DNA from: Candidatus Uhrbacteria bacterium
GTDB lineage: Bacteria > Patescibacteriota > Patescibacteriia > UBA9934 > GWF2-40-263
Direction: 5' to 3'
Length of the DNA: 64,000 nucleotides
Assembly (NCBI GenBank): GCA_016188495.1
Contig: JACPHU010000002.1
Location: 7,363-71,362 of the forward strand
Below are positions 2,687 to 62,006 of the stretch, piece by piece (positions within the stretch are counted from its first letter, which is position 1; each line of letters begins with the position of its first letter). The notes beneath the pieces are model-generated. The model was given only the letters and a program-made list of their open reading frames with translations, made no database searches and was not told the DNA's origin. A program made the position numbers and the translations under genes.

Positions 2687-2745
2687 AGTGGTACGGTCGG
2701 TCCTGTTAAATGGACCTCCCACGATTAAATTTTTATTATTTATTT

Positions 2746-2940
2746 TTTGTAAATCTTCTTAAAATCGATGAGATTGCGGTGCACGTCATGCCGAAGGCAG
2801 ATCCGCCTCTGGCGGAGGCTGCCCGCCCGATCGTCGAACGTTCGTTCGGGCGGGTTGAGCCCCGAGAACCCTACTCAGAGTAGGGAGAACGGGGTCAACG
2901 GGCGCCCGTAAGCCGCAAGATCACTATTTTAAGAAGATTT
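2746..2940. repeat. family-1 palindromic MITE-like repeat, long form (copy A)
   Basis: perfect 15-bp TIR aaatcttcttaaaat/attttaagaagattt; internal gcccgcccga...tcgggcggg hairpin; ccctactcagagtaggg hairpin; similar to copies at 12834, 19406, 38033 and others. Confidence 0.8.
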
Positions 2941-3367
2941 ACTTTATTTCTACACCCATCTGACGTGCCGTTCCCGCAATAATATTCATGGCTGCATCAA
3001 CACTTTGGGTATTCAGATCAGGCATTTTCTTTTCTGCGATTTCTTTCAGCTGTGCCTTGGTAATGGAACCAACTTTGTTGGTGAGAGGATTGGCAGAACC
3101 GGACTTAATCCCAGCAGCTTTTTTGATCATGTCAGAAGCCGGAGCTGTTTTGGTAATGAAATCGAATGTGCGGTCATCGTAGACACTGATCACAACCGGA
3201 ACGGTTTCACCTCGTCGATCCTGTGTTTCGTTATTGAAACGGCTGACAAATTCTCCGATAGGGAGTCCGTGTTGACCCAGAGCTGGTCCGATAGGAGGGG
3301 CTGGTGTTGCGGCACCTCCTGGTACTTGTAATTTGATCTGTGTGACGAGTTTTTTGACTTTTGCCAT
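2939..3367 (-). CDS. rplK: 50S ribosomal protein L11
   Basis: [34 protein letters not shown] is the canonical L11 N-terminus. Confidence 0.92.
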
Positions 3368-8400: not shown

Positions 8401-9549
8401 ATGTTTAAAATACAAACTCAACGTTTTTTTCGATTTTTTTATCCGTTGCGATCGATAGATTGGCTTTTATTTTTGTCGATTTTTTCCCTTCTTTTGATAG
8501 GTCTCTCCGCTATTTACTCCGTCGAACTTTCACAGGACGTTTCAGAATTTATTCATGTACAAAAACAGGTTTTGGCCATTTTTTTGGGTATCGCTGTTTT
8601 TTTCTGTATCGCTCCTTCTAATTACAAACTTCTTCAGAATTATGCGCTGGTTTTGTATTTTTTATGCGCATTGCTTTTGATCGGCGTGTTGGTTCTGGGT
8701 GAGACGATTCGTGGTTCGACCGGTTGGTTTGTGATCGGTTTTGTGAGTTTCCAACCTGTTGAATTAATGAAAGTGAGTTTGGTGATTGCCCTAGCAACCT
8801 ATTTTTCACGTCAGGGGAGACGTCCGTTCGACGCCAGAATGTTTTTGGAAAGCGGGTTCATCAGTTTTATTCCTGTCATGCTTGTTTTACTTCAACCGGA
8901 TTTTGGATCTGCGTCTATCCTATTAGGAATTTGGTTTTTCTTTCTTTTTTTTGCAGGAATTCCTTGGAGATATCTTTTTTATCTCGCGCTAGCGGGCTGT
9001 GTTCTTTTTTTTATCAGTTGGAATTTCCTTTTCGCCGATTATCAAATAGCCCGTATCATGACGTTTCTTGATCCAAGTTTGGACCCATTGGGAAAGGGAT
9101 ATAACGTCACACAAGCCATCATTGCGGTTGGATCCGGAGGATGGTTTGGCAGCGGATTGGGGTTTGGGACCCAGAGTCAGCTGAAGTTTCTTCCCGAAAG
9201 CCAAACAGATTTTATTTTTGCTGTTATTGCGGAAGAATTAGGGTTTTTTGGAGTGTTTCTGTTACTATCCGCTTTCGGTCTATGTCTTTTCCGATTAGGA
9301 CGTCAGGTTTCGCATTCCAGAGATGATTTCACGGCATATCTGGTGTTGGGAATTGCCACCGTTTTTTTTCTTCAAATAGTAGTAAATATCGGAATGAATC
9401 TAGGACTTTTCCCTGTCACGGGAATTGGACTGCCTTTTGTCAGTTACGGGGGAAGCTCGCTTATTGTGATGTTTAGTTTGTTCGCGATCGCTCAGAGCGT
9501 TGCCATTCACTATCGCAGTGGTCATGCGGATGTGGGTGTGTTATCGTAA
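8401..9549 (+). CDS. ftsW: SEDS family peptidoglycan polymerase FtsW/RodA
   Basis: 382 aa polytopic; LQPDFGSA, FIFAVIAEELGF and GLPFVSYGGSS motifs typical of FtsW/RodA. Confidence 0.85.
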   Translation: MFKIQTQRFFRFFYPLRSIDWLLFLSIFSLLLIGLSAIYSVELSQDVSEFIHVQKQVLAIFLGIAVFFCIAPSNYKLLQNYALVLYFLCALLLIGVLVLGETIRGSTGWFVIGFVSFQPVELMKVSLVIALATYFSRQGRRPFDARMFLESGFISFIPVMLVLLQPDFGSASILLGIWFFFLFFAGIPWRYLFYLALAGCVLFFISWNFLFADYQIARIMTFLDPSLDPLGKGYNVTQAIIAVGSGGWFGSGLGFGTQSQLKFLPESQTDFIFAVIAEELGFFGVFLLLSAFGLCLFRLGRQVSHSRDDFTAYLVLGIATVFFLQIVVNIGMNLGLFPVTGIGLPFVSYGGSSLIVMFSLFAIAQSVAIHYRSGHADVGVLS

Positions 9550-12833: not shown

Positions 12834-13016
12834 TGAGATTCTTGTAAAACTCGATGAGATTGTCTGCCTACCGGCAGGTAGGCCTTGAATGGGCTGCCCG
12901 CCCGACCGTCGAACGTTCGTTCGGGCGGGTCGAGTACCGAGAACCCTATTCACATAGGGAGAACGGGATCGACGGGCGCCCGTGAAAGGCAAGATCGCGA
13001 GTTTTACAAGAATCTT
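12834..13016. repeat. family-1 palindromic MITE-like repeat, long form (copy B)
   Basis: perfect 18-bp TIR agattcttgtaaaactcg/cgagttttacaagaatct; contains the 35-nt gcccgcccga...cgggcggg module; abuts the prfA stop and prmC leader. Confidence 0.85.
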
Positions 13017-19279: not shown

Positions 19280-19405
19280 AGTCTGTTTATTTCTTGACCT
19301 TTCTCCTTTATTTCTGTAGAGTCCGATCATAATTTATCTATACAGGTGGAATAACCAATAACCAGTTCCTCCCGCTTATCGGGTCTGGTATTGCCACTGA
19401 CGTTA

Positions 19406-19568
19406 GAGACCTCTACAAAACTCGCGATCTTGCCTTTCACAGGCGCCCGTCGATCCCGTTCTCCCTATGATGAATAGGGTTCTCGGGATTCGACCTGCCC
19501 GAACGAACGTTCGACGGTCGGGCGGGCAGCCCGTTCAAGGCAATCTCATCGAGTTTTACAGAGGTCTC
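19406..19568. repeat. family-1 palindromic MITE-like repeat, long form, inverted orientation (copy C)
   Basis: 19-bp TIR gagacctctacaaaactcg/cgagttttacagaggtctc (1 mismatch); internal ccctatgatgaataggg hairpin and the 35-nt GC module; ends 18 nt before the rpsB start. Confidence 0.85.
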
Positions 19569-19586
19569 ATAAAAGGAAATCAATTT

Positions 19587-22596: not shown

Positions 22597-23784
22597 ATGA
22601 AATTACGCAAACTTGGAAATGCGATAAGTGTAAAAGGGAAACGAGTGCTTATTCGTATTGATGCCAACGTTCCTGTTGTCAAAGGTCGTGCTCAAGATGG
22701 TCCTCATGGACGGATTGCACGTTCTGCTGTTGATATTAACTGGCTGTCACAGCGTGGGGCAAAGGTGATTGTGATGGCTCATCTTGGCAGACCAAAAGGA
22801 AGGCGTGTTCCGGCCTATTCCCTTAAGCCCGTTGCTAAACGTCTCTCAGGATTACTCGGAAGTAAAATTAAACTTACCCGATCTGTCGTTGGGAAAGATG
22901 TCGAGAAATCTGTTGTGGCCATGCAAGAAGGAGATATTCTTTTATTGGAAAATTTACGTTTTGATTCAAGAGAAGAGGAAAACGCGCCGTCATTGGCTGA
23001 AGCTCTGGCCAGGCTAGGAGATTTATATGTGAATGACGCCTTCTCGGTTTCGCATAGGGCGCATGCCTCTGTTGATGCTCTTACCTCCAATCTTCCTTCT
23101 TATGCCGGACCATTGCTTGCTCAAGAAATAAGCGTGTTGAGCCGTCTAGAACAGAAAGCAAAACATCCATTTATTTTAGTGCTCGGAGGATTAAAAATGA
23201 GCACCAAACTTCCTATCATTAAGAGATTTATCGATCAGCTGGATTTCGTTCTTATCGCAGGAGCTTTGGCAAATATTTTTTTGGTCGCACAAGGATTCTC
23301 TGTTGGGAAATCTGTGTTTGAAGAGGGTGTTCTTGAAGAAGCAAAATGGTTGCTCAGTACGCATGGCGAAAAGATCGTCCTGCCGGTGGATGTGTTGTGT
23401 GTGCGTTCATTGCGTAAAGACGCAAAGAGAACTGTTTGTTCTATCGATCAAATTCACGAAAAAGACCGTGTCGTCGATATTGGTCCACAGACGCAAAAAC
23501 AGTTTGAGCAAATTCTTCATCAAGCCAAAACGATCGTCTGGAACGGACCCCTTGGCTACTGTGAAATACCTGCCTTTGCCCAGGCAACTGAGCAAATCGC
23601 AAAAGTTATTGCTCATCAAACAAGTCACGCAACCACGATTGTGGGCGGAGGAGATACGCTTCCCGTCATTGAATCACTCCATTTAGCTGATAAATACACG
23701 CTTCTTTCAACCGGAGGCGGGGCTCTTCTCCAATTTCTCTCAGGGGAATCGCTTCCGGGTATTGATGCGCTTAAAACTTCATAG
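22597..23784 (+). CDS. pgk: phosphoglycerate kinase
   Basis: KGKRVLIRIDANVPV N-terminal motif; hinge and C-terminal GGGDT-like region; start trimmed to MKLRK. Confidence 0.9.
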   Translation: MKLRKLGNAISVKGKRVLIRIDANVPVVKGRAQDGPHGRIARSAVDINWLSQRGAKVIVMAHLGRPKGRRVPAYSLKPVAKRLSGLLGSKIKLTRSVVGKDVEKSVVAMQEGDILLLENLRFDSREEENAPSLAEALARLGDLYVNDAFSVSHRAHASVDALTSNLPSYAGPLLAQEISVLSRLEQKAKHPFILVLGGLKMSTKLPIIKRFIDQLDFVLIAGALANIFLVAQGFSVGKSVFEEGVLEEAKWLLSTHGEKIVLPVDVLCVRSLRKDAKRTVCSIDQIHEKDRVVDIGPQTQKQFEQILHQAKTIVWNGPLGYCEIPAFAQATEQIAKVIAHQTSHATTIVGGGDTLPVIESLHLADKYTLLSTGGGALLQFLSGESLPGIDALKTS

Positions 23785-23901
23785 AACTTCCTCACTTGGC
23801 GCATAGCTTTGTCGAAATCTACGTTTTTTGTTCACTGTATGTGAATACAGCTCATAAAAAGCCTCGATTTCTTCGCGCTCTGCATCCAATTGAGAAAGTT
23901 C
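23784..23901. repeat. family-2 palindromic repeat (copy K1) between pgk and eno
   Basis: TIR gaacttcctcacttgg/ccaattgagaaagttc; about 95% identical to the copy at 40861-40979. Confidence 0.8.
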
Positions 23902-23910
23902 TACATCATT

Positions 23911-37107: not shown

Positions 37108-37356
37108 CTATCCATCTGTATAGAGTTCAACCAGTCGCCATTCAAGAAATTCTGAATCCAGTTTGAGTTTGAAGTAATTGTTTACATCCGAGACGGAAAA
37201 ATAGTAGATACGTTTGTGCCCCTCATGAGAACTTTGGACAAGATTTACGGTTTTAATGACGTAGTTTTGTTCGTTCCATCTGAGTGAACAGGGGAGAATA
37301 CGATTATCTTTAAACGAAACGACGACATCGATAGGGTCGTTAAGTAGTTCGTGCAT
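37108..37356 (-). CDS. small hypothetical protein (82 aa)
   Basis: ORF only; lies downstream of lexA and flanked by a repeat copy. Confidence 0.3.
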   Translation of the reverse strand: MHELLNDPIDVVVSFKDNRILPCSLRWNEQNYVIKTVNLVQSSHEGHKRIYYFSVSDVNNYFKLKLDSEFLEWRLVELYTDG

Positions 37357-37371
37357 AGGAAAAGATGTTTA

Positions 37372-37497
37372 AACCTCTGCAAAACTCGCGATCTTGCCTT
37401 TCACGGGCGCCCGTTGACCACACTCTCCCTATTCTGAATAGGGTTCGTGCGGCTCAACAGCCCGTTCAAGGCAATCTCATCGAGTTTTGCAAAGGTC
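37372..37497. repeat. family-1 repeat, short form (copy D)
   Basis: TIR acctctgcaaaactcg/cgagttttgcaaaggtc; lacks the 35-nt GC module. Confidence 0.8.
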
Positions 37498-37938
37498 TTA
37501 TTATATGTGAAAGAAGTTCACGGAGAGTTCGTTTGATTTGACGGCGGCTTGTGCGGATACGAAATAAACGCAATCCTTTTGCCATTCGTTGATCGCGTCG
37601 ACGTGGAAGAAAGCAAAACGTATTAAAGTGATGACGAAGGATGGAGGTAGACATAATAAAGAGGGTTTAGATGAATGATTGGGATCAATCGTCTAAGACA
37701 ACGGCTCGGCCGCAAAAAGGATCAAGGACGTGATCTCTTCTATTCCGCTCAGATTGAATAGAAGAACGATCTTTCCTTTTTCCAGCTTTGTAGCAGAGTC
37801 GTTATCTTGGACACATGAAGGATAAGATCAGAGAGATTTTTCCGGCCTAGTTGCTCTCCGATCTTTCCTTTATTACAATAAAAAAGCTGCCATACGTCTG
37901 GGATTTCGTTCCCGCACGTAACCGGTGGTTTTTGTAAG

Positions 37939-37981
37939 GAACACTGTTTTGTCTTGCCGGACGCCAGTGTTCTTTTTTTTG
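37939..37981 (+). terminator. rho-independent terminator in an ORF-free region
   Basis: gaacactg...cagtgttc stem followed by T8. Confidence 0.5.
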
Positions 37982-38032
37982 CACAGACTGTTGTGTGATC
38001 CCGTTCACAACAGAATGCACATGAAATCTCTC

Positions 38033-38190
38033 CATAAATCGATGAGATTGCGGTGCACGGGCTGCCCGCCCGACTGAACGACGAGCAATCCTGTTCAGTC
38101 GTTCGGGCGGGTCGAGCTCCGCGAACCCTACTCACAGTAGGGAGAGTGGAGTCGACGGGGCCCGTAAGCCGCAAGATCGCGATTTCTGGA
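38033..38190. repeat. family-1 repeat, long form (copy E)
   Basis: aaatcgatgagattgcggtgcacg start identical to copy A; gcccgcccga...cgggcggg module; ends 10 nt from the lexA stop. Confidence 0.8.
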
Positions 38191-38199
38191 GGGATTTCT

Positions 38200-38814
38200 C
38201 TACACAGGTTGGAATTTTCGTATAACAGCTCTTACTACTCCTTGGATGATGCAGTCTTGGACATAAATAGGATCCATTGAACTGTTTGCTGGTTGGAGAC
38301 GGATTCTATTTTTTTCTCGGTAGAAGCGTTTGAGTGTGGCAAAGGCGTTGTCCATGAGAGCAACGACCACCTCGCCGTTTCTGGGAGAGGGATTGCGTTC
38401 GATCACCACAAAGTCTCCGTTGAGAATCCCGTCTTCGATCATTGAACGTCCTTTGACCCGCAGAACATAAGAGTTAGCACCATCTAGGACAAAGTCTGCA
38501 GGAACGGCCATGGCTTCGTTGTCTTGTACGGCTTCGATAGGTTCTCCGGCTGTGATGAGTCCCAACAGAGGGAGCATGATTGATGATTCGGATGGAGATT
38601 CTTGTACAAGTTCGATAGATCGGGCTTCGCCGTCTTCTCCGTTGGTAATAAGACCTTTTTCTAAAAGCATTTGAACGTGCCCATGTACCGTTGCAGGAGA
38701 GGATAATCCAAAATGGTCGGCAATTTCACGATAGGATGGAGCATAACCATTTTCGCTCAGGTGTTCGCGAATGAATTCCAGAACTTCAGCCTGTTTTTTT
38801 GTGAGTGGTGGCAT
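38200..38814 (-). CDS. lexA: SOS transcriptional repressor LexA (S24 peptidase)
   Basis: N-terminal wHTH (LSENGYAPSYREIA), Ala-Gly cleavage region, GRSM Ser-nucleophile motif and the catalytic Lys in the C-terminal region. Confidence 0.9.
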   Translation of the reverse strand: MPPLTKKQAEVLEFIREHLSENGYAPSYREIADHFGLSSPATVHGHVQMLLEKGLITNGEDGEARSIELVQESPSESSIMLPLLGLITAGEPIEAVQDNEAMAVPADFVLDGANSYVLRVKGRSMIEDGILNGDFVVIERNPSPRNGEVVVALMDNAFATLKRFYREKNRIRLQPANSSMDPIYVQDCIIQGVVRAVIRKFQPV

Positions 38815-38825
38815 AGGGGAGTAAG

Positions 38826-38953
38826 GAGACCTCTACAAAACTCGCGATCTTGCCTTTCACGGGCACCCGTCGATCCCGTTCTCCCTATGTGAATAGGGTT
38901 CTCGGGACTCGACAGCCCGTTCAAGGCGATCTCATCGAGTTTTGTAGAGGTCT
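38826..38953. repeat. family-1 repeat, short form (copy F) in the lexA 5' leader
   Basis: perfect 19-bp TIR gagacctctacaaaactcg/cgagttttgtagaggtctc; begins 12 nt upstream of the lexA start codon. Confidence 0.85.
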
Positions 38954-38972
38954 CTAAGTGAAGTGGATAACT

Positions 38973-39014
38973 GTTCGCTTTCTGTTCGTATTATATTGCG
39001 AACAAAAACCGAAC
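38973..39014. promoter_or_regulatory. candidate LexA operator: composite palindrome TGTTCG-N6-GTTCG-N10-CGAAC-N6-CGAACA
   Basis: two GTTC-N7-GTTC / GAAC-N7-GAAC half-sites arranged as a 17-bp inverted repeat in the lexA/metK divergent region. Confidence 0.3.
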
Positions 39015-39115
39015 ACAAGAGAAGGGTGTGGATATCGTTTTTTATTCACCTAACATCCCCAAGTTTTGCGATGACAGTCGAGTAAAATTTTGGTATTCTG
39101 AGGCAGTATTTCTTT

Positions 39116-39314
39116 GGAGATCTTTGTAAAACTCGATGAGACCTACTTGCCGGTAGGCAGGTAGCCTTGCCTGCCTGTCGGCAGACAGGAATGGGGAAAC
39201 CCGTCCGAACGGACATAAGGCCGGGCGGGTCGGCGACAGAGTCGTACCTAAACGTACGGCGACAAGCCGATGAGGCCCCATGAAATGAAAGATCGCGAGT
39301 TTTGCAAAGATCTC
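39116..39314. repeat. family-1 repeat, variant subfamily (copy G), abutting the metK start
   Basis: TIR agatctttgtaaaactcg/cgagttttgcaaagatct; interior shares gaatggggaaacccgtccgaacggacataaggccgggcgggt with the repeat at 61806-62000. Confidence 0.8.
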
Positions 39315-39315
39315 T

Positions 39316-40362
39316 ATGAAGAAAACGGTCGAGTCTGTCACACAAGGTCATCCGGACAAAATCTGCGATCAGATCGCTGATGCGATCGTGGATGAGTATT
39401 TGCGTCGGGATAAACACGCACAAGTAGATGTAAATGTTTTGGGGTCCCATGGCATGGTAATGATCGCGGGAGAGGTAACCTCTACGGCTGATTTTGATAT
39501 CGGAGCGCTTGCTCAAAAAGTGTACGAAGAGATCGGATATAAAGATGATATAGAAGTCTTTGTAAATATCGAAACGCAATCCGACGAAATGAAACGCATT
39601 ACCAATGGGGTAATGGACAACGTTGTGGTGAATGGATATGCCACACAGGAGACCCGTGAATTGTTACCAAGATCACTTGTCTATGCTCATAATCTCGCTC
39701 GTCGTTTAGATGATTTGCGAAAATCAGACCCGGCTTTTTCTTGGCTCAAACCAGATGGAAAGATACAGCTTACGATGGAGGGGGATCGTGTGTGTGCGGT
39801 GACGGTTCTTGCCTCTCATCACGTCAGTATTCAAGAGAAAGAAGTGAAGACCGCTCTATTGGATCGTTTATTGGTTCCTGTCGTGGGAGAAGAAGGCGTC
39901 CAAATATATATCAATCCTGTCGGTTCGTTTCATCAAGCAGGTTTTCGATCCGACTCAGGAGCCAGTGGTCGTAAATTAACGGTAGATACCTACGGAGGTC
40001 TTGTTCCGCAAGGAGACAAATCTCTTTCGGGGAAAGACCCCACAAAAGTAGATCGCGCCGCTGCTTACATGGCCCGGTTTGCTGCACGATTTATTGTGGA
40101 ACAAGGTCTTGCGACCTCCGCGATGGTGACATTGGTTTATTCGATGGGGCAACCGCAGCCGATTTATCTTCAAGCATTGGGAATGGGGGAAAAATCTCGA
40201 GGAAGCAAGATGGATCTCACCAATGTGTTAAAACAAACTTTCGATTTTCGTCCTCAAGCGATTGTAGAGTTTTTGGATCTGATTCAGCCGCTGTATCGCG
40301 CTACAGCGGCTTATGGACATTTTGGGAGACAGGGATTCCCTTGGGAAGATAAAGTGTTATAG
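39316..40362 (+). CDS. metK: S-adenosylmethionine synthetase
   Basis: ESVTQGHPDKICDQIADAIVD N-terminal signature; 348 aa, shorter than the typical 380-400 aa. Confidence 0.85.
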   Translation: MKKTVESVTQGHPDKICDQIADAIVDEYLRRDKHAQVDVNVLGSHGMVMIAGEVTSTADFDIGALAQKVYEEIGYKDDIEVFVNIETQSDEMKRITNGVMDNVVVNGYATQETRELLPRSLVYAHNLARRLDDLRKSDPAFSWLKPDGKIQLTMEGDRVCAVTVLASHHVSIQEKEVKTALLDRLLVPVVGEEGVQIYINPVGSFHQAGFRSDSGASGRKLTVDTYGGLVPQGDKSLSGKDPTKVDRAAAYMARFAARFIVEQGLATSAMVTLVYSMGQPQPIYLQALGMGEKSRGSKMDLTNVLKQTFDFRPQAIVEFLDLIQPLYRATAAYGHFGRQGFPWEDKVL

Positions 40363-40847: not shown

Positions 40848-40860
40848 CTTAGGACTTCCT

Positions 40861-40979
40861 CACTTGGCGCATAGCTTTTCGAAATCTACGTTTTTTGTTC
40901 ACTGTATGTGAATACAGCTCACAAAAAGCCTCGATTTCTTCGCGCTCTGCATCCAATTGAGAAAGTCCTATAACTTCGA
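40861..40979. repeat. family-2 palindromic repeat (copy K2)
   Basis: TIR aggacttcctcacttgg/ccaattgagaaagtcct; near-identical to the copy at 23784-23901. Confidence 0.85.
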
Positions 40980-43295: not shown

Positions 43296-43829
43296 TTACT
43301 GATGGTTAGTACCTGTTTTTTTGATCGTGGGTTTTGCACCTGTGGCTTGCGCAACGGGCGGGGCTGTAATCAGTTTCAGACCAGATTCCCCAGTAATCTC
43401 CTGGAGAATCTTTCGAGAGGAACAATGTATATCAGGACAACGTCCTTCTGTTCGCGGGACGTGTTTTTCACACTCGATGCATTTCCAGTCTCGATGAGAC
43501 GCCGTTTTTTTCCGGTGGCACCATTCCATCCACCAAGCCGTCAGTGCAAGCGTTTCCTCCGTTTCTTCAGACAAGTCCTTCAGAAGATCGTTCTTTTGAG
43601 GAACTAACTGATAGAAGGGTATTTGGTTTGGAGTCAATCGTAGAATTTGGATCTCTCCTTCAAAGAGACAGGATACAAGCGGGTGTAAACGCATCCACAA
43701 CACAGAGGGAAGTTCTTTTGGCGTAAGAACATGTCCTATTCCACCATAAATATGGGTGAATTCCATCCCGTCTTGATCCATCTTTATTTGGAGAGGGAAA
43801 AGGGTGATACCACGGGTTTGTGTACTCAT
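43296..43829 (-). CDS. hypothetical Cys-rich protein
   Basis: 177 aa; CxxC...C cluster near the C-terminus (CIECEKH...CPDIHC). Confidence 0.4.
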   Translation of the reverse strand: MSTQTRGITLFPLQIKMDQDGMEFTHIYGGIGHVLTPKELPSVLWMRLHPLVSCLFEGEIQILRLTPNQIPFYQLVPQKNDLLKDLSEETEETLALTAWWMEWCHRKKTASHRDWKCIECEKHVPRTEGRCPDIHCSSRKILQEITGESGLKLITAPPVAQATGAKPTIKKTGTNHQ

Positions 43830-43875
43830 GCGTCTCCTATCTGTGGTGAGTGCCAGAACCTGTTATAATACTAAC

Positions 43876-45276
43876 ATGCAAGGAACAATAAGTGAAAAAA
43901 CATTCTATCAATATCTCAAGTGCCCAAATTGGGTGTATTTTGACGCATACGCGCAAGCTGCCCGTCCGCATGATGCACTGATGTCTAAGCTTCAAGACGA
44001 CGGACTTATCGAAGAAAAAGAACGGGATCTTCTTACGGATCGTCAGGATTTGGTTGAAGTGACCGCTGAAGATCCTGACGAAGCGTTTGCTCAAACGCTG
44101 ACGTTTATGCGTGAGGCGCGCCAGACGATTTATCATGGAGTGCTCGTGGATAAACATTGGGTAGGGCATCCTGATATTTTAGAGAAAGTTGAGGGACGCT
44201 CTCACTTGGGGAATTATTACTATGTTGCCGCTGATATTAAACGATCTCGAGAAGTTCGTGATGATTATAAGTTTCAGGGATGTTTTTATGCCGAGCTTTT
44301 GGAACGTATTCAGGGCGTTAAGCCTGTTCAGGGATACATCCTAACACCCGAGAATCAGAGTCTGTCTTATTTAATTGAAGAGTTTGAGGCCAAGTATGAA
44401 CTGACACTGACCGAAATCGAGAAGATTATTGCCGGCAAACGTCCGGCACATTTTGTGACTTCAGGATGTAAGCAGTCGCCTTGGTACAAAGAATGCCGGC
44501 ACGAATCGGAGAGTTGCGAAGATCTTTCTTTATTGAACCGCGTCTGGCGGGACGAAGTGTCTAAACTCGAAGAAGCGGGGATTAAGACGATTGGACAGCT
44601 TGCCCTGAAATCTATTCCGGAATTAGAAAAGATTGCACCAGAGGTCAGTTCTTCTCGTCTTGAAATGATGCGCGACCAAGCCATCGCGATTAAAGAAAAT
44701 CGTTATATTATTCGTGGAACGGTAGATTTGCCAGAGTCCAATATTGAACTCTATTTTGATATTGAAAGCGATCCGTTGCGTGATTTTGATTACTTGTTTG
44801 GAGTTTTGGAAGTAACCCCGCAAGGAGAGCACTATCATTCTTTTTTTGCTCAGACTCCTGAACAAGAGGGAGCGATGTGGGCAGAGTTCGTTCAATTCAT
44901 TGAACGCCATATCGATGCGCCGATCTATCATTATGGCTGGTTTGAAGAAGAAGTCGTTCATCGATTCGCTGCCAAATATGGTATCGGAGAAATAGCTCGT
45001 GAAGCCCTTGAACGTAACATGATCGATCTTCTTTCCGTGATTCGTCCGGCTATTATTTTCCCCCTCTCTTTCTATTCATTGAAAGACATTGCTGGGTATA
45101 TTGGGTTTGAATGGCGGAGCAAAGATGCCTCTGGGGCTAATTCCGTTGTCTGGTTTGAAGAGTGGCTTCAGAAAAAGAGTCCGAAACTTATTCAGAAGAT
45201 TTTGGAATATAATGAAGATGATGTCCGCGCAACGTATCGGCTTCAACGTTGGGTACGCGAACATGTGATGTTATGA
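43876..45276 (+). CDS. RecB-family nuclease of the TM0106 type (Cas4-like PD-(D/E)xK N-domain plus RNase-H-like C-domain)
   Basis: N-terminal ISEKTFYQYLKCPNWVYFD resembles the Cas4/DUF83 start; a 4-Cys cluster in the middle; C-terminal YFDIESDP exonuclease-like motif; the start coordinate is approximate because the ORF track and my base count differ by 1 nt. Confidence 0.45.
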   Translation: MQGTISEKTFYQYLKCPNWVYFDAYAQAARPHDALMSKLQDDGLIEEKERDLLTDRQDLVEVTAEDPDEAFAQTLTFMREARQTIYHGVLVDKHWVGHPDILEKVEGRSHLGNYYYVAADIKRSREVRDDYKFQGCFYAELLERIQGVKPVQGYILTPENQSLSYLIEEFEAKYELTLTEIEKIIAGKRPAHFVTSGCKQSPWYKECRHESESCEDLSLLNRVWRDEVSKLEEAGIKTIGQLALKSIPELEKIAPEVSSSRLEMMRDQAIAIKENRYIIRGTVDLPESNIELYFDIESDPLRDFDYLFGVLEVTPQGEHYHSFFAQTPEQEGAMWAEFVQFIERHIDAPIYHYGWFEEEVVHRFAAKYGIGEIAREALERNMIDLLSVIRPAIIFPLSFYSLKDIAGYIGFEWRSKDASGANSVVWFEEWLQKKSPKLIQKILEYNEDDVRATYRLQRWVREHVML

Positions 45277-46563: not shown

Positions 46564-47037
46564 ATGTTGACCGATTATATTCTTGGAGGATCATTGGGCG
46601 GCCTCATTGCGTTTGTTTTTGCTATTCCTGCTATCGTGTTAGAAATGACTGAATCAGGCAAGGTGAAAAACGCTCCTCTCTTGGTTGATGTAAAAACGAT
46701 TTTTGGATTGAAGATTATTCATAAACACGAAGTTTTTTTTATCGGATTGCTTCTTCATCTTGTGTTTGGTTTTCTGTTTGGGATTGTCTACGTTTTGTTC
46801 GTGGAACAAGGATGGCTTTTTGTCACACATGCTCCTTATACCGTTTTTTCTCTTGTTGTCTTTGCTTTTTTAAGTTGGGTTGTTGTAGGGGTGATTATTT
46901 ATCCGTTGTTAGGTTTAGGTATTTTTGGATTAAAAGAAGGTCCACGTGTATGGCTTGAAACACTTACCTCTCATTTGATTTTAGCTTTTTCTTTGTGGCT
47001 TTTAGTACGGTATTTTCAGCCATTCTTTTTTAATTAG
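46564..47037 (+). CDS. hypothetical polytopic membrane protein
   Basis: 157 aa, four to five TM helices. Confidence 0.45.
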   Translation: MLTDYILGGSLGGLIAFVFAIPAIVLEMTESGKVKNAPLLVDVKTIFGLKIIHKHEVFFIGLLLHLVFGFLFGIVYVLFVEQGWLFVTHAPYTVFSLVVFAFLSWVVVGVIIYPLLGLGIFGLKEGPRVWLETLTSHLILAFSLWLLVRYFQPFFFN

Positions 47038-47158
47038 GACTTTCTCATTTGGCGATCTACTTGCGCTTCGCCCATAAAAACCTGCGTCGTATATCTGTAT
47101 ACGCCTCCGGTTTTTATGGACTCCAGCGCGGCGCATCTCATCCAAATGAGAAAGTCCT
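47036..47158. repeat. family-2-related palindromic repeat (copy K3, divergent interior)
   Basis: TIR aggactttctcatttgg/ccaaatgagaaagtcct matches K1/K2 termini; the interior differs. Confidence 0.7.
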
Positions 47159-47181
47159 ATTAATCCTCCATTATAGCAAGC

Positions 47182-50591: not shown

Positions 50592-50743
50592 TTTCCTCGA
50601 ACTGAAGATTTACCGTAGACCACGGGCGGCTCTGTTGAAGAGTGGAAGTCCTGTGCAGGTGAGTATTTCCTTATGGTATTAAGGAAGTAGATCATTACTA
50701 CGGCATAAATCCGTAGTTTATTTATTTTTAAAGGTCGAACATA

Positions 50744-50873
50744 GAGATCTCTCAAAAAATCATGATCTTACGGCTTACGGGCGCCCGTCGACCCCACTCT
50801 CCCTATTCTGAATAGGGTTCGCGGGGCTCGACAGCCCGTGCACCGTAATCTCATCGATTTTTTGAGAGATCTC
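50744..50873. repeat. family-1 repeat, short form (copy H) inside the rplJ leader
   Basis: TIR gagatctctcaaaaaatc/gattttttgagagatctc; the core gggcgcccgtcgaccccactctccctattctgaatagggttcgcggggctcgacagcccg is shared with copies at 37372 and 56314. Confidence 0.85.
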
Positions 50874-50883
50874 AACATTCATT

Positions 50884-55634: not shown

Positions 55635-56306
55635 ATGTCTTTCACCCAACAAATTCTTCAGGGGCCTTTGTTAGAACTTTGGGAGAATGTCGTAGCTTAT
55701 TTGCCAAACGTGATCGGAGCCATTTTTGTTTTTTGTATCGGTGTAGCCCTTGCTCTTGTATTGCGTAGCGTTGTGGTGAATGTGATCGCGTTATTGCGTA
55801 TCGACGAACTTTCAAAACGTCTTGAAATTACAGGTCAGTTTCAGCGTTTTGGTCTGCGTTTGCATATAGGAGAACTGTTGGGTTGGATTGTAAAGTGGTT
55901 TTTTATTATTATCGCTCTTATCGCGGCAACAGACATTCTCGGATGGGATCAAGTAACCGATTATTTACAAAGAGTGGTGTTATTTATTCCAAACGTCATT
56001 ATCGCGGTCATTATTTTGTTAGCGGGAATTCTGTTGGGAAATTTCGTTCAGCGCGTGGTTAAAACAGCGGTAGAGACGGCACATCTTGCCTCTGCGGATC
56101 TTCTTTCTGGAATTGCAAAATGGGCCATCTTAGTCTTCAGTTTCATGGCGGCACTCGTTCAGCTTCAGATTGCTCCAGAACTTATTCGAGTGTTATTTAC
56201 AGGGCTTGTTGCCATGATTTCTATTGCCGGAGGTTTAGCCTTTGGTCTTGGTGGCAAAGAGCATGCGAATCGGTTGTTGGATCGACTTAAAAAAGATATT
56301 TCTTAA
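55635..56306 (+). CDS. membrane protein with repeated conserved-TM-helix motifs (MscS-associated type)
   Basis: 223 aa, four to five TM helices with internally repeated pattern. Confidence 0.35.
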   Translation: MSFTQQILQGPLLELWENVVAYLPNVIGAIFVFCIGVALALVLRSVVVNVIALLRIDELSKRLEITGQFQRFGLRLHIGELLGWIVKWFFIIIALIAATDILGWDQVTDYLQRVVLFIPNVIIAVIILLAGILLGNFVQRVVKTAVETAHLASADLLSGIAKWAILVFSFMAALVQLQIAPELIRVLFTGLVAMISIAGGLAFGLGGKEHANRLLDRLKKDIS

Positions 56307-56313
56307 GACATAA

Positions 56314-56425
56314 GTAAAACTCGCGATCTTGACGTTTTCGGGCGCCCGTCGACCCCACTCTCCCTATGGTGAATAGGGTTCGCGGGGCTCGACAGCCCGA
56401 AAACGTCAATCTCATCGAGTTTTAC
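56314..56425. repeat. family-1 repeat, short form (copy I) upstream of the GT2 gene
   Basis: gtaaaactcgcgatcttgacgttttcgggcgcccg...cgggcgcccgaaaacgtcaatctcatcgagttttac. Confidence 0.85.
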
Positions 56426-56444
56426 ATATGCCTCTCTTCATAAA

Positions 56445-57942: not shown

Positions 57943-58995
57943 ATGAATGATCCAATCATCAGTCTCCATATCGTAACCTGGAATTCGATGCGATTTCTTC
58001 CAGATTTATTATCATCGATCAAAGAACAGACTTTTAAAGAAATAAATATTCTTATCATTGATAATGCTTCAAGTGATGGTGTTGAAGATTTTGTCAAAGA
58101 GCACTATCCGGAGATTGTATTTATACGTAATGCCAGAAATCTTGGTTTTTCAGCAGCTCATAATCAGGGTATTCGTTATGCGATTGAACATTGGCCGAAG
58201 GAAGCGCTCCAAGATCGGTTTATCCTGTTAACCAATCCGGACATCATTTTTACCCCAACGTATCTTGAAGAACTCATCGCCTCTGCACGTGTGCATCCAG
58301 AAGTGGCAAGTTTTGGAGGAAAACTGTTGAGGGCTTTTGGAGAAAACATTGGGGATGAAGTATTTAAACAAACCGTTCGTTCTGATCGTTTGGATTCCGT
58401 AGGACTTAATCCACATAGAAATTATACGGTCACTGACCGTGGAGCTGGAGAACTAGATCAGGGTCAGTATGATGAAGAAGCCTTTGTCTTTGGTATTTCT
58501 GGGGCCCTTGTTTTATTTCGGGCTTCCTCACTAGAGGATGTTCGTTATCAAGATGAAATTTTAGATCATCATTTTTTTGCCTATAAAGAGGATGTGGATC
58601 TTGCTTGGCGTTTACAGCAGGCAGGTTGGGACGCTTTCTATGTTCCTCGTGCGGTTGCCTATCATTATCGCGGAATGTATGGACCAGAAAAAAGCGGTCT
58701 GTGGCAGCGATTGCGCAATCATCGTTCAAAATCTTCTTTACGGAATTTTTTTTCAACAAGAAACCATTGGTTAATGCTCATCAAGAATATTCATAGCCGT
58801 CATTTTTTTCTCGCTCTTCCCTGGATTGCTTTCTATGAAGGGGGAAGACTGATATATGTCTTATTTTTCGAACATTCCGGACTTCGAACAATAAAAGAAA
58901 CGTGTTCATTGTTTCCCGTGATGTTAAAAAAACGTGCACACGTGTTTAAAAAAGCAAAACGTTCAGCGAAAGATCTTCGCCATTGGTTTGTATGA
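57943..58995 (+). CDS. family-2 glycosyltransferase
   Basis: LHIVTWNS...ILIIDNASSDG...NLGFSAAHNQG GT2 signature. Confidence 0.8.
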   Translation: MNDPIISLHIVTWNSMRFLPDLLSSIKEQTFKEINILIIDNASSDGVEDFVKEHYPEIVFIRNARNLGFSAAHNQGIRYAIEHWPKEALQDRFILLTNPDIIFTPTYLEELIASARVHPEVASFGGKLLRAFGENIGDEVFKQTVRSDRLDSVGLNPHRNYTVTDRGAGELDQGQYDEEAFVFGISGALVLFRASSLEDVRYQDEILDHHFFAYKEDVDLAWRLQQAGWDAFYVPRAVAYHYRGMYGPEKSGLWQRLRNHRSKSSLRNFFSTRNHWLMLIKNIHSRHFFLALPWIAFYEGGRLIYVLFFEHSGLRTIKETCSLFPVMLKKRAHVFKKAKRSAKDLRHWFV

Positions 58996-59825: not shown

Positions 59826-61803
59826 TGTCGTTAAGCAAAAAAGGAGACGCACGCGTCTTGTGCGAATGATTTTGTTGTTCGTTTTTTTCGCGATTCTTTT
59901 CTGGACGATGGCCCTTCTGGCGGCTTCTGCTTACGTTGCCGTTCACATGTTTGATGCAAAGCAAGACATGCTTGAGGCAAAAGAGTTTGCTCAAGAGTTA
60001 ATCTTCGAAGACGCACAGGTTGCTTTACAGCACGCCGTAGATTCGTTTGATTCTGCAAGAGTAGGTTTGTCGGTTATTGCCTCCGTGCAATGGATTCCTG
60101 TTGTGGGTCGTTCTGTTGAATTGTTTGTCGATAGTATTCATTCGAGCGAGTTGTTTATTGAGGCGTTGATTCCTTTGTTTGATTTAGGCGACGATCTAGT
60201 GCGTTTATCAGGTTTGTCAAAGGAAGAGCTGATGAAGATGCAGCAAGGTATGACTCCTGAGATCACGTTTGGCGATCTTTCTTCGGAAACCAAGCAGGCA
60301 ATTTTGGCCCGCCTAAGCGCTTCTGCCGAAGACCTGGATTTACTCCTTGCACGCATGGATATCGTAAATGAAGAACTGCTTTTATTATCAGAAGATGTCC
60401 AGATACAACCCTTTCTCGTTTTTTTGGATCCCATAAAACAGCAGTTGGATCAAATGCGAGCATCTTTAAGTATTCTTTCTATTGGAGCACGCCTTTTGCC
60501 TGATTTTGCTGGATTAGATCAACCAGCCACGCTATTGCTCCTTTTTTTGAATAATACAGAACTTAGACCTGCCGGAGGTTTTATCGGTTCTTACGGTGTT
60601 CTTAAAACATTTTCTGGAGATATTTCCCAGTTGGAAACAGCAGACGTTTACACTCTTGACGATGCAGCCGCATCCAAGATTCAACGGACGGCCCCTACAC
60701 CTTTGCAAACCTATAACGCGACAACGAAATGGTTTTTCCGAGATGCGAATTGGTCTCCGGATTTTCCTGCTTCCTCCCAAGCAGCAATGTCTCTTTTTCT
60801 TGAAGAGGTAGGTTTTATTGAGGATCTTACCGAAATTCCTTCATCAAAAGCGTTTGACGGAGTCATTGGGATCACTCCAGATTATGTCGCTGATCTTTTG
60901 GTTCTGACGGGTCCTATCACGATCGGGTCTCAAACGTTTACGAGCGAAAATATTATTGACGCGCTCGAATATCAGGTTGAATTTGGCTATAAAACTCAAG
61001 GAATTCCTGTTCATCAGCGAAAAGCTCTTTTAGCTGATTTGGTGAATGAGCTTAAATCACGTCTCTATCAGCTTCCTTCCAAGCGTTGGGAAGAAGTGCT
61101 TCGTGTGACCCAGAAAGCCCTCAAAGAAAAACAGCTTTTGCTTTACAGTACAAACAGTCAAACTCAAGAAATGTTGCAGAGTGTGGGATGGGCAGGTTCG
61201 GTAGCTTCTTCCACGAGCGATACACTCATGGTGGTGGACGCCAACCTCGCCAGTTTAAAATCAGATCCAGCGGTTGAGCGTTCTGTGCAGTATGAGCTGT
61301 TTAAAAATGCTTCAGAGCAGTGGATTGGAAGAGTCTCTATTACCTATAACCATAAGGGAGTATTTGATTGGAAAACGACTCGTTATCGAACGTATACCAG
61401 AGTTTATCTTCCCCTTGGATCAACGCTTATTCGCTCTCGTGGAAGCTGGCTAAATGACAAAACACAAAATCCAACCAAGGCCGTGGGTCCTGTAGATCAA
61501 GTGGACGAATTGGGTTTTACTTCATTTGGAACATTTACGTCTGTGGAGCCAGGCGAACAAAGTATGCTGGTATTTGAGTTTCAGCCCTCCACTCAAGTGA
61601 TCCAACAAATTGAAGTAGATCAGTATGATTTAACGGTTCTGAAACAGGCCGGGGCTCAGAATAATGCGTTGACGATCGACCTCGATTTTGATAAGAATGT
61701 GACACACGCGAGACCTTCCGAGGATGCTCAACAATGGGGAGATGATAGATATCGTTTGAACACCATTTTAGATCAAGACCTAGAAATTTACGTGTCATTG
61801 TAA
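59749..61803 (+). CDS. DUF4012-like membrane-anchored protein
   Basis: N-terminal TM helix; FLNNTELRPAGGFIGSYG motif recalled from DUF4012 proteins in polysaccharide loci. Confidence 0.45.
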   Translation: MLFIIIRSIIRDMSHTTNFLHHTQTDVVKQKRRRTRLVRMILLFVFFAILFWTMALLAASAYVAVHMFDAKQDMLEAKEFAQELIFEDAQVALQHAVDSFDSARVGLSVIASVQWIPVVGRSVELFVDSIHSSELFIEALIPLFDLGDDLVRLSGLSKEELMKMQQGMTPEITFGDLSSETKQAILARLSASAEDLDLLLARMDIVNEELLLLSEDVQIQPFLVFLDPIKQQLDQMRASLSILSIGARLLPDFAGLDQPATLLLLFLNNTELRPAGGFIGSYGVLKTFSGDISQLETADVYTLDDAAASKIQRTAPTPLQTYNATTKWFFRDANWSPDFPASSQAAMSLFLEEVGFIEDLTEIPSSKAFDGVIGITPDYVADLLVLTGPITIGSQTFTSENIIDALEYQVEFGYKTQGIPVHQRKALLADLVNELKSRLYQLPSKRWEEVLRVTQKALKEKQLLLYSTNSQTQEMLQSVGWAGSVASSTSDTLMVVDANLASLKSDPAVERSVQYELFKNASEQWIGRVSITYNHKGVFDWKTTRYRTYTRVYLPLGSTLIRSRGSWLNDKTQNPTKAVGPVDQVDELGFTSFGTFTSVEPGEQSMLVFEFQPSTQVIQQIEVDQYDLTVLKQAGAQNNALTIDLDFDKNVTHARPSEDAQQWGDDRYRLNTILDQDLEIYVSL

Positions 61804-61805
61804 AA

Positions 61806-62000
61806 TTTTTTTCTAAAATTGATGAGATTTCGTTGAATGGGGAAACCCGTCCGAACGGACATAAGGCCGGGCGGGTTGGCGACAGAGCTGTATTCACATA
61901 CAGTGACCCTTCGATAGACTCAGGATCAGTCTGAGCTTGTCGAAGACTGACGAGCCAATGGGGCCCCATGAAACGAAAGATCGCAATTTTAGAAAAAATT
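61806..62000. repeat. family-1 variant repeat (copy J) with nested family-3 motif, abutting the mreB start
   Basis: TIR ttttttctaaaattg/caattttagaaaaaa; shares a 50-nt core with the repeat at 39116-39314; the interior contains ctgagcttgtcgaag and cccttcga blocks of family 3. Confidence 0.8.
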
Positions 62001-62006
62001 TGTATT

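Follow-up and report, generated by a model that had tools for sequence, protein, structure and literature searches.

A strand-asymmetric hairpin repeat dispersed through the intergenic spacers of Candidatus Uhrbacteria

A stretch of 64,000 nucleotides from a metagenome-assembled Candidatus Uhrbacteria genome (contig JACPHU010000002.1 of assembly GCA_016188495.1; this whole stretch is referred to below as the window) contains ten copies of an intergenic repeat, family 1, which appears to be undescribed and has so far been found only in Candidatus Uhrbacteria, members of the Candidate Phyla Radiation (CPR, or Patescibacteria). The copies are homologous and share a covarying fold carried by one of the two strands, short target duplications flank part of them, orthologous sites occur both filled and empty, and one spacer has been hit independently in two sister genomes. 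We consider it probable (roughly 60%) that family 1 is a non-coding, non-autonomous element that is mobilised in trans and recognised as a folded single strand, of either single-stranded DNA (ssDNA) or RNA.

The initial annotation of the window had described an abundant palindromic family, resembling MITEs (small transposable elements bounded by inverted repeats) and REP sequences, at ten intervals. When a profile built from these intervals was run against the window with nhmmer, ten homologous copies were recovered (E 1e-34 to 1e-53) and no eleventh, and a covariance model returned the same ten sites and nothing further, so that all ten intervals stand as real copies. They measure 131–202 nt and together occupy 1,652 bp, or 2.6% of the window. 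As had been claimed, they occur in both orientations (five on each strand, each copy being asymmetric so that its orientation is defined), and all are intergenic, with no open reading frame (ORF) inside. Seventeen instances of the motif AAAACTCG were counted in the window where 5.06 would be expected, and none of 100 shuffles reached 17; a terminal inverted repeat, forming an 18–19-bp stem, is present in every intact copy. Segments of the copies at 12834, 19405 and 38825 are 94–98% identical to one another. The family is thus abundant, genuine and of the kind proposed, but its members are not symmetric palindromes: one strand carries the structure.

The strand that carries the conserved fold, reading 5'-...AAAACUCGAUGAGAUUGCC...GGCAAGAUCGCGAGUUUU...-3', is called B, and the strand given for any copy is that of B. 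The parts of the element are listed here for the focal copy, upstream of rpsB (Pfam S2 match), which nhmmer recovered at E 1.8e-53 and which the covariance model scored at 86.7 bits on the minus strand against 39.4 on the plus strand:

19405–19569, minus strand: focal copy, 165 nt, a short core into which one hairpin is inserted; lies 18 nt before the rpsB ATG (19587)
19406–19424: GAGACCTCTACAAAACTCG, left arm of the outer stem P1, pairing with 19550–19568
19425–19431: CGATCTT, asymmetric conserved segment; AAGAUCG on B, as 3' half of the motif that comprises the bulged A, the U·G and the tandem G·A
19494–19526: CCTGCCCGA...TCGGGCGGG, inserted hairpin module, which converts the rod to a three-way junction
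19542–19549: AATCTCAT, asymmetric conserved segment; AUGAGAUU on B, as 5' half of the motif to which CGATCTT contributes the 3' half
19550–19568: CGAGTTTTACAGAGGTCTC, right arm of P1, pairing with 19406–19424

The CGATCTT segment occupies near-invariant alignment columns, and the hairpin module recurs in the copies at 2748, 12834 and 38022 and in copies from the sister genome GW2011_GWF2_39_13 (GWF2_39_13 below).

The fold was defined on the short forms of 131–133 nt, which make up 26 of 41 unique copies. On their alignment a 52-pair rod structure has 94.7% of its cells paired, compared with 77.8% in column shuffles (none of 500 reaches the observed value), and pairing falls to 35–47% once partners are slid. 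Compensatory changes, on both sides of a pair, were found at 34 of the 52 pairs, and the covariation spans the whole interior; the folding and covariance modelling that the initial annotation had proposed as a check thus yield a conserved fold. From the outside inwards, the 18–19-bp outer stem comes first, with tips that are usually GAG...CTC. Its distal 11 bp vary freely among copies, being the most variable part of the element, yet remain complementary through paired substitutions. Inside this stem an A is bulged out, after which come a 3-bp helix that contains a U·G pair and then the tandem G·A loop. A 7-bp covarying helix, a second G·A loop and the pairing ACGGGC/GCCCGU follow, and innermost lie the 3-nt bulge GGY, whose Gs are invariant, a helix that has a GAA/AGA loop, and the terminal hairpin. 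The U·G pairs at columns 22/113 and 42/90 are retained in 23 of 26 sequences. The conserved region spans the ~38 nt at either end, one end being an imperfect copy of the other.

Loci from relatives and metagenomes that were used for comparison are labelled L plus a number (L004, for example, is from GWF2_39_13). In the L136 copy, CUCG/CGAG is replaced by GUG/CGC while the bulged A, the U·G pair and the tandem G·A persist, and in L138 compensated pairs replace AAAAC/GUUUU. These changes of sequence leave the structure intact, so that what is conserved in the basal motif is its shape, on one strand. Several comparisons at this level gave negative results. Copying of the outer stem from the target was rejected, since the stems are related between copies. 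A hammerhead core (CUGAUGA/GAAA), compared by eye, was likewise rejected, CGAUGAGA lacking the U of CUGAUGA, as were by-eye matches to hairpin-ribozyme loops and to a C/D-box K-turn; short forms have a two-way junction, and no 3-nt bulge adjoins the tandem G·A.

Size variation is modular. Long forms, of up to ~200 nt, carry extra hairpin modules at fixed points, which recur in differing combinations across genomes; one such module, CCCGCCCGA...UCGGGCGGG, sits opposite the GGY bulge and creates a three-way junction. In minimal forms of 74–86 nt the inner hairpin is missing. Where the inner module is present, the six bases before it (ACGGGC, or AUGGGG in a variant subfamily) flank it as a direct repeat, an arrangement that fits either a nested insertion or a deletion between repeats. 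GC-rich mini-palindromes (CCTACCGGCAGGTAGG, CCTGCCTGTCGGCAGACAGG) are also nested in the 7-bp helix (window 12858–12880 and 39140–39190, and again in L020) and look like another tiny inserted unit. In L040, positions 9100–9300 hold a partial tandem, in which a solitary 3' end motif is followed by a copy without an outer stem and flanking sequence is repeated.

The two strands of the element are not equivalent. Of 46 unique copies, 45 have a more stable fold on B than on the complement; in one example copy the values for B and complement were -80.4 and -62.4 kcal/mol with RNA parameters and -42.2 and -34.5 with DNA parameters (z scores -8 to -13). Both parameter sets make B the more stable strand and so do not discriminate between ssDNA and RNA. 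The covariance model places B ~85 bits above the reverse complement. Leaving aside pairs whose family consensus is a wobble, there are 86 G·U to 38 A·C, and G·U also prevails, 23 to 11, in those copies that have B antisense to the genes on either side. Mutational bias was rejected as an explanation of this G·U excess, given that copy orientation is mixed relative to both replication and transcription. Since GC skew is positive throughout the window and the copies nonetheless split 5:5, no replication-strand rule applies.

Orientation relative to transcription is less even. Between co-directional genes B is antisense in 12 copies and sense in four, two of which are truncated, so that operon-internal transcripts mostly carry the weaker-folding strand. 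The initial annotation had expected co-transcription as long hairpins in 5' leaders; its reading of the placement was right, but the hairpin of most such transcripts would be the weaker one. Such placement is not evidence of leader function, because closeness to start and stop codons is largely forced by the tiny spacers of a compact genome together with a preference for T-rich targets. The sense strands of spacers are A-rich, and this target preference alone could therefore produce the antisense bias; the same data are compatible with selection. B-sense copies lie directly upstream of lexA, metK and mreB, and in other genomes all four copies situated 3–5 nt upstream of tRNA genes are B-sense, so that the pre-tRNA leader would contain the hairpin. 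Elements adjoining tRNA genes by 0–5 nt were seen at L010 2482–2777 and 3669–3910, L007 4541–4693 and L085 261–470.

Searches for copies elsewhere, also suggested at the outset, found them in GWF2_39_13 and in metagenomes. A one-genome-per-species scan with the hairpin-tip motif matched only GWF2_39_13, in which ten loci hold at least 13 copies. When metagenomes were scanned with both conserved basal motifs, ~27 of the 120 loci returned were true members and ~90 were chance matches; related copies are present on about 25 metagenome contigs. Other Uhrbacteria have one copy or none in 20 kb. The L11 protein encoded in the window shows 100% identity to an NCBI protein assigned to 'Candidatus Uhrbacteria bacterium'. 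The annotation had not recognised the family, and neither Rfam, nor phage or plasmid collections, nor the searchable literature holds a counterpart: the whole window gave no Rfam match at gathering thresholds, a permissive Rfam scan of 37300–39400 (four copies) gave only noise (E >=0.25), BLAST against phages and plasmids gave no match to family 1, pattern scans of viral contigs gave none and then two chance matches that the covariance model rejected, and nothing describing it emerged when the literature was searched for repeats of Uhrbacteria or CPR bacteria or for the literal motifs. An exact-protein look-up of LexA for strain variants had nothing on record. Independent assemblies of the same strain (Logan, ENA) end inside elements, at L001 1–47, L132 3543–3606 and L133 606–671.

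Presence/absence comparison at orthologous sites, another check proposed with the initial annotation, found both states. Sites filled in the window are empty in L114, L127, L134/L135, L138 and L140. The rplK–rplA site is filled in the window, in GWF2_39_13 and in L136/L137, and is empty, with a spacer of 50–62 nt, in CG10_48_16, L138, L140 and one JGI contig. In the ~10-nt spacer between the DUF4012-gene stop and the mreB start, the window and GWF2_39_13 hold different copies in opposite orientations within flanks that are 83–86% identical; this spacer has been hit independently in two sister genomes. An unrelated long hairpin with GGTGG(A/G)AA / CCACCTT repeats was seen in the rplK–rplA spacer of L139 (10430–10515) and in the mreB-upstream spacer of L114 (9505–9600). 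Because these hairpins occupy the same spacers in other Uhrbacteria, the two spacers either tolerate or attract hairpin insertions.

Direct repeats of at least 5 bp flank 22% of 41 copies, compared with 4% in flank-swapped controls, and repeats of at least 4 bp flank 39% compared with 13%. The modal length of the target duplication is 5 bp (GTTTA, CATTT, TTTAT, TTATT, ATGTT and ATTGA are examples), and older copies have none. On the B strand the target is T-rich: of 23 copies, 16 have T at -1, 15 have it at -4 and 15 at +1, and the left flank contains 182 T to 106 A. Two copies sit in loops of hairpins that resemble terminators. Scanning for promoters and terminators yielded no consistent signal within the elements, and Pfam detected no transposase, integrase or reverse-transcriptase domain in the ~60 window ORFs. 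No autonomous copy, with two end motifs enclosing an ORF, was found in any of the family loci, nor was a parent element with matching ends and a transposase found in the window or the comparison loci. Resolution of a cruciform as a route of excision was rejected on topology, as it gives hairpin-capped breaks and not an excised element.

These observations suggest the following course of events. The element would enter short T-rich intergenic spacers, duplicating ~5 bp of target, and would be mobilised in trans, since the copies neither contain a transposase gene nor have one close by. That duplex target DNA is cut in a staggered way is suggested by the duplication and by the precise GAG...CTC ends. 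The propagating machinery most likely reads a folded single strand rather than a pair of double-stranded terminal repeats, since the outer stem is free in sequence yet paired, the interior covaries, length is strict and the basal motif is one-stranded. Once inserted, a copy would put a long hairpin into any transcript crossing it, and sense-oriented B may be under-represented either because that orientation is harmful or because T-rich target preference fixes the orientation. In its conservation of a single-strand shape with poor conservation of sequence, family 1 is like the attC sites of integrons, in which the folded form of one strand is recognised through extrahelical bases, unpaired spacers and a variable terminal structure, with shape conserved over sequence. 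It differs from them in having no RYYYAAC/GTTRRRY boxes, no cassette array and no adjacent integrase, and in being scattered among housekeeping genes in both orientations with target duplications.

Several points weigh against recognition of a folded single strand. Part of the strand asymmetry, namely the purine-rich and G·A loops and the conserved wobbles, comes from a common ancestor, so the 45 copies do not count as independent observations, and shared descent also inflates the G·U excess. The orientation bias is modest (two-sided binomial p ~0.08 with all copies counted, ~0.013 with intact copies only). A duplication of ~5 bp suggests that double-stranded target DNA is cut in the DDE manner; known systems of that kind read double-stranded ends, and none is known that would both make a duplication of this sort and recognise a folded single strand. 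Neither the window ORFs nor the comparison loci yielded a mobilising protein. Compensatory changes between orthologs may also have another origin. Between the window and L004, at least five pairs of the rplK–rplA copy have changed in a compensated way, and two of these pairs belong to the locus-specific outer stem. Such changes could reflect selection in place, or else template switching within a quasipalindrome as the DNA is replicated, a known mutational route. As a tentative extension, with less weight than the folded-strand reading itself, the machinery might recognise a three-dimensional motif (bulged A, U·G and tandem G·A) and yet make a staggered 5-bp cut, or the element might be a mobile structured RNA with its own CPR protein partner.

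An ordinary MITE of double-stranded DNA, derived from a Tn3-family or other DDE element, whose ~38-bp ends are bound as duplex and whose hairpin and asymmetry are functionless by-products, is in our judgement unlikely. It would account for the ~38 nt conserved at each end and the relatedness of the two ends, for the absence of an ORF within copies, and for the 5-bp duplications, which the second repeat family of the window (described below) also has; shortness, dispersal, inverted repeats and presence/absence polymorphism are likewise general features of MITEs. One likeness is to TIMEs, non-autonomous elements of 262 bp whose 38-bp repeats are well conserved and related to a known transposon of the Tn3 family, and which make 5-bp (sometimes 6-bp) AT-rich duplications such as TTTATT or AACAT (PMC4133298). 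The outermost 11 bp, however, normally the best-conserved part of an inverted repeat, are here the most variable and change in pairs, which is atypical of a MITE; the whole element is one covarying hairpin, with 34 of 52 pairs supported; the G·U excess is confined to one strand; and the basal motif is kept as structure despite changes of sequence. Tn3 repeats, compared by eye, share AAAACTC-CG with family 1, but their terminal GGGG and inner TAAG are missing from it. No Tn3-type transposase was seen among the ~60 window ORFs, and none is known in the genomes that carry family 1. A plain duplex MITE would suffice if the strand asymmetry were due to inheritance and chance. Movement by a single-copy tyrosine transposase (Y1/HUH, RAYT or IS200/IS605-type) acting on ssDNA hairpins at the replication fork, as for REPINs, would accommodate a strand-specific fold that also appears with DNA energy parameters, but we regard it as very unlikely. 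REPINs are ~100-nt intergenic hairpins with conserved left and right ends and a fixed-length spacer, conserved in pairing over sequence through frequent compensatory changes, thought to fold in ssDNA or mRNA, and present at high copy density with many copies lacking an adjacent transposase, in all of which family 1 is similar (PMC3116915). Unlike REPINs, family 1 has subterminal conserved blocks with a variable 11-bp stem outside them, extra hairpin modules, and clear ~5-bp target duplications of variable sequence. IS200/IS605-type transposition is not known to produce a target duplication. Family 1 further shows no conserved flanking tetranucleotide, no REP-like GTAG and no REP unit (REP units are 20–40-nt palindromes, which its conserved blocks are not), no leading-strand orientation bias in the window (5:5 under uniformly positive GC skew), and neither a RAYT gene nor a Y1 transposase among the ~60 window ORFs (Pfam); REPIN hosts are Proteobacteria or Cyanobacteria, whereas its host is a CPR bacterium.

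Two further explanations place the function in RNA. The post-transcriptional role raised in the initial annotation, RNase III processing included, is at this stage conjecture. That the element is a cis-acting RNA useful to the host (an mRNA stabiliser, an RNase III processing stem or a terminator), spread by transposition and then kept by selection at individual loci, is quite unlikely. Retention of the rplK–rplA copy in three lineages with compensatory changes, the presence of unrelated GGTGG/CCACC hairpins in the same spacers of other Uhrbacteria, the B-sense copies ahead of lexA, metK, mreB and the four tRNA genes, and a stem closure of CUCG/CGAG followed by UUUU would all agree with it. 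It is disfavoured by close relatives that have empty sites at the same operon positions without any replacement, by a mixed orientation to transcription with the conserved strand mostly antisense inside operons, by a B-strand G·U excess that persists where the mRNA would carry the other strand, and by a terminator scan that did not pick up the elements. An RNA-mediated (retro)element, or a set of dispersed small RNA genes whose B-strand RNA is the functional or replicating molecule, is highly improbable, even though structured RNAs typically show a strict length, tandem G·A loops and conserved U·G pairs, RNase P cleavage at the four tRNA-adjacent B-sense copies would release a defined RNA, and the length of the flanking duplication varies somewhat. 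Family 1 has no conserved promoter or terminator, no poly(A) or T tail and no Rfam relative, its ends are precise (GAG...CTC), truncations occur at either end, B is antisense in most operon-internal copies, and no reverse transcriptase is encoded nearby.

Among other dispersed bacterial repeats, Correia/NEMIS elements of Neisseria and ERIC elements of enterobacteria are intergenic MITEs of 100–200 bp with inverted repeats, often co-transcribed, found in both orientations and with size variants arising by internal insertion. Family 1 is like them in length class, intergenic position, inverted repeats, orientation and internal-insertion variants; it has no sequence similarity to them, and its arms are asymmetric, with a one-strand structural motif and an unconserved terminal stem. 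The likeness to Correia, REP and BIME elements drawn in the initial annotation accordingly holds as far as a MITE/REP-like character. Correia elements have a TA duplication and a conserved 26-bp inverted repeat and belong to Neisseria, whereas family 1 has a ~5-bp T-rich duplication, variable tips and a CPR host, and REP/BIME sequences are built of 20–40-nt units and make no duplication.

Besides the focal copy, the window holds the following nine:

2748–2943, plus strand: copy between the rplK stop and the rplA leader, 196 nt, with three extra hairpins; ortholog in GWF2_39_13 (L004 4503–4634)
12834–13017, plus strand: copy between the prfA stop and the prmC start, 184 nt; direct repeat TTATT at its flanks
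37369–37500, minus strand: short form, 132 nt, 12 nt upstream of an 82-aa ORF (37108–37356)
38022–38199, plus strand: lexA-downstream copy, 178 nt, directly 3' of the lexA stop codon; its ortholog is the L073/L127 copy
38825–38955, minus strand: lexA-upstream short form, 131 nt, 11 nt upstream of the lexA start, B sense; flanks CTTA/CTTA
39116–39315, plus strand: metK-upstream copy of the variant subfamily, 200 nt, abutting the metK ATG (39316), B sense
50743–50874, minus strand: rplJ-upstream short form, 132 nt, 10 nt upstream of rplJ; direct repeat ATGTT at its flanks
56304–56435, minus strand: short form, 132 nt, between a channel-like gene and a 494-aa ORF
61802–62003, plus strand: mreB-upstream copy of the variant subfamily, 202 nt, between the DUF4012-gene stop and mreB

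The neighbours named in the initial annotation are mostly right, Pfam supporting rplA/rplK, prmC, rpsB, lexA, metK, rplJ and mreB, and likewise prfA and the DUF4012 gene, which it had not named, and the contacts with coding sequence are as it had claimed. Copies overlap by 2–5 nt the stop codons of rplK, prfA, the DUF4012 gene and the channel-like gene (55635–56306, Pfam MS_channel_1st_1), and the gap from copy end to start codon is 0–19 nt for metK, mreB, rplJ, lexA, rpsB and prmC. A GT2 gene had also been placed beside the copy at 56304, but the ORF directly downstream of that copy has no Pfam match, and the GT2 genes start at 57943. The orthologous site of this copy is empty in L114, as is that of the copy at 38825 in L127; the latter copy is 97% identical to parts of those at 12834 and 19405. 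A promoter-like site (39071–39099) lies just upstream of the copy at 39116.

Some features of the surrounding spacers were noted in passing. The copy at 2748 lies between the rplK stop and a segment just upstream of rplA (window 2700–2745, minus strand; L134 10120–10160) that reads GTGGGAGG...GACCGACCGAACC, is conserved across relatives and looks like an L1 autoregulatory leader; Rfam did not call it. In the lexA/metK interval, TGTTCGCTTTCTGTTCGTATTAT (38975–39000), conserved in L127 as TGTTCGCTTTATGTTCGTATTATGAAC, could be a LexA operator. The ~520 nt at 37501–38021, between two copies, have no convincing ORF: a 141-aa ORF there extends into an element and has no Pfam match. By eye this segment shares scattered conserved blocks with the lexA-downstream region of L073, with no long blastn match, and it may encode a small protein or RNA. 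In L138, ~1 kb without a called gene (150–1187) separates prfA from prmC, a spacer that bears an element in the window. Elsewhere, a 490-aa protein (43804–45276) with a C-terminal RNase_H_2 domain (PF13482) is the sole nuclease-fold protein of the window without an obvious housekeeping role, with nothing found to link it to the repeats; L139 2228–5569 is a gyrB with an intein (PF14890).

A second repeat family was also seen in the window. Family 2 consists of ~123-nt hairpin repeats at 23782–23904, 40850–40971 and 47035–47160, with inverted repeats TAGRACTTYCTCAYTTGG...CCAAWTGAGAAAGTYCTA and 5-bp duplications (TAACT, TTAAT), and one of its strands folds better than the other. A hairpin-tip module, CTGTATTCACATACAG, occurs in the family-1 copy at 61802 (61888–61903) and in two family-2 copies (23835–23850 and 40902–40917), and since it is common to both, modules move between families.

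CPR genomes are streamlined, at roughly 1 Mb, and despite this a single family makes up 2.6% of 64 kb and is placed in ribosomal-protein, release-factor, lexA, metK, mreB and tRNA loci. Its copies fragment metagenome-assembled genomes of Uhrbacteria, as short-read assemblies break inside them, while the filled and empty sites might be used as strain markers and the covariance model enables a census. Family 1 joins MITE-like target duplications with a strand-specific covarying fold of the kind seen in REPINs or attC sites. If a three-dimensional motif is indeed recognised by machinery that makes a 5-bp staggered cut, this would be a transposition route outside both the duplex-end DDE class and the IS200/RAYT single-strand class. 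The family could thus point to an unrecognised route of DNA mobilisation or to an organism-specific protein-binding nucleic-acid motif.

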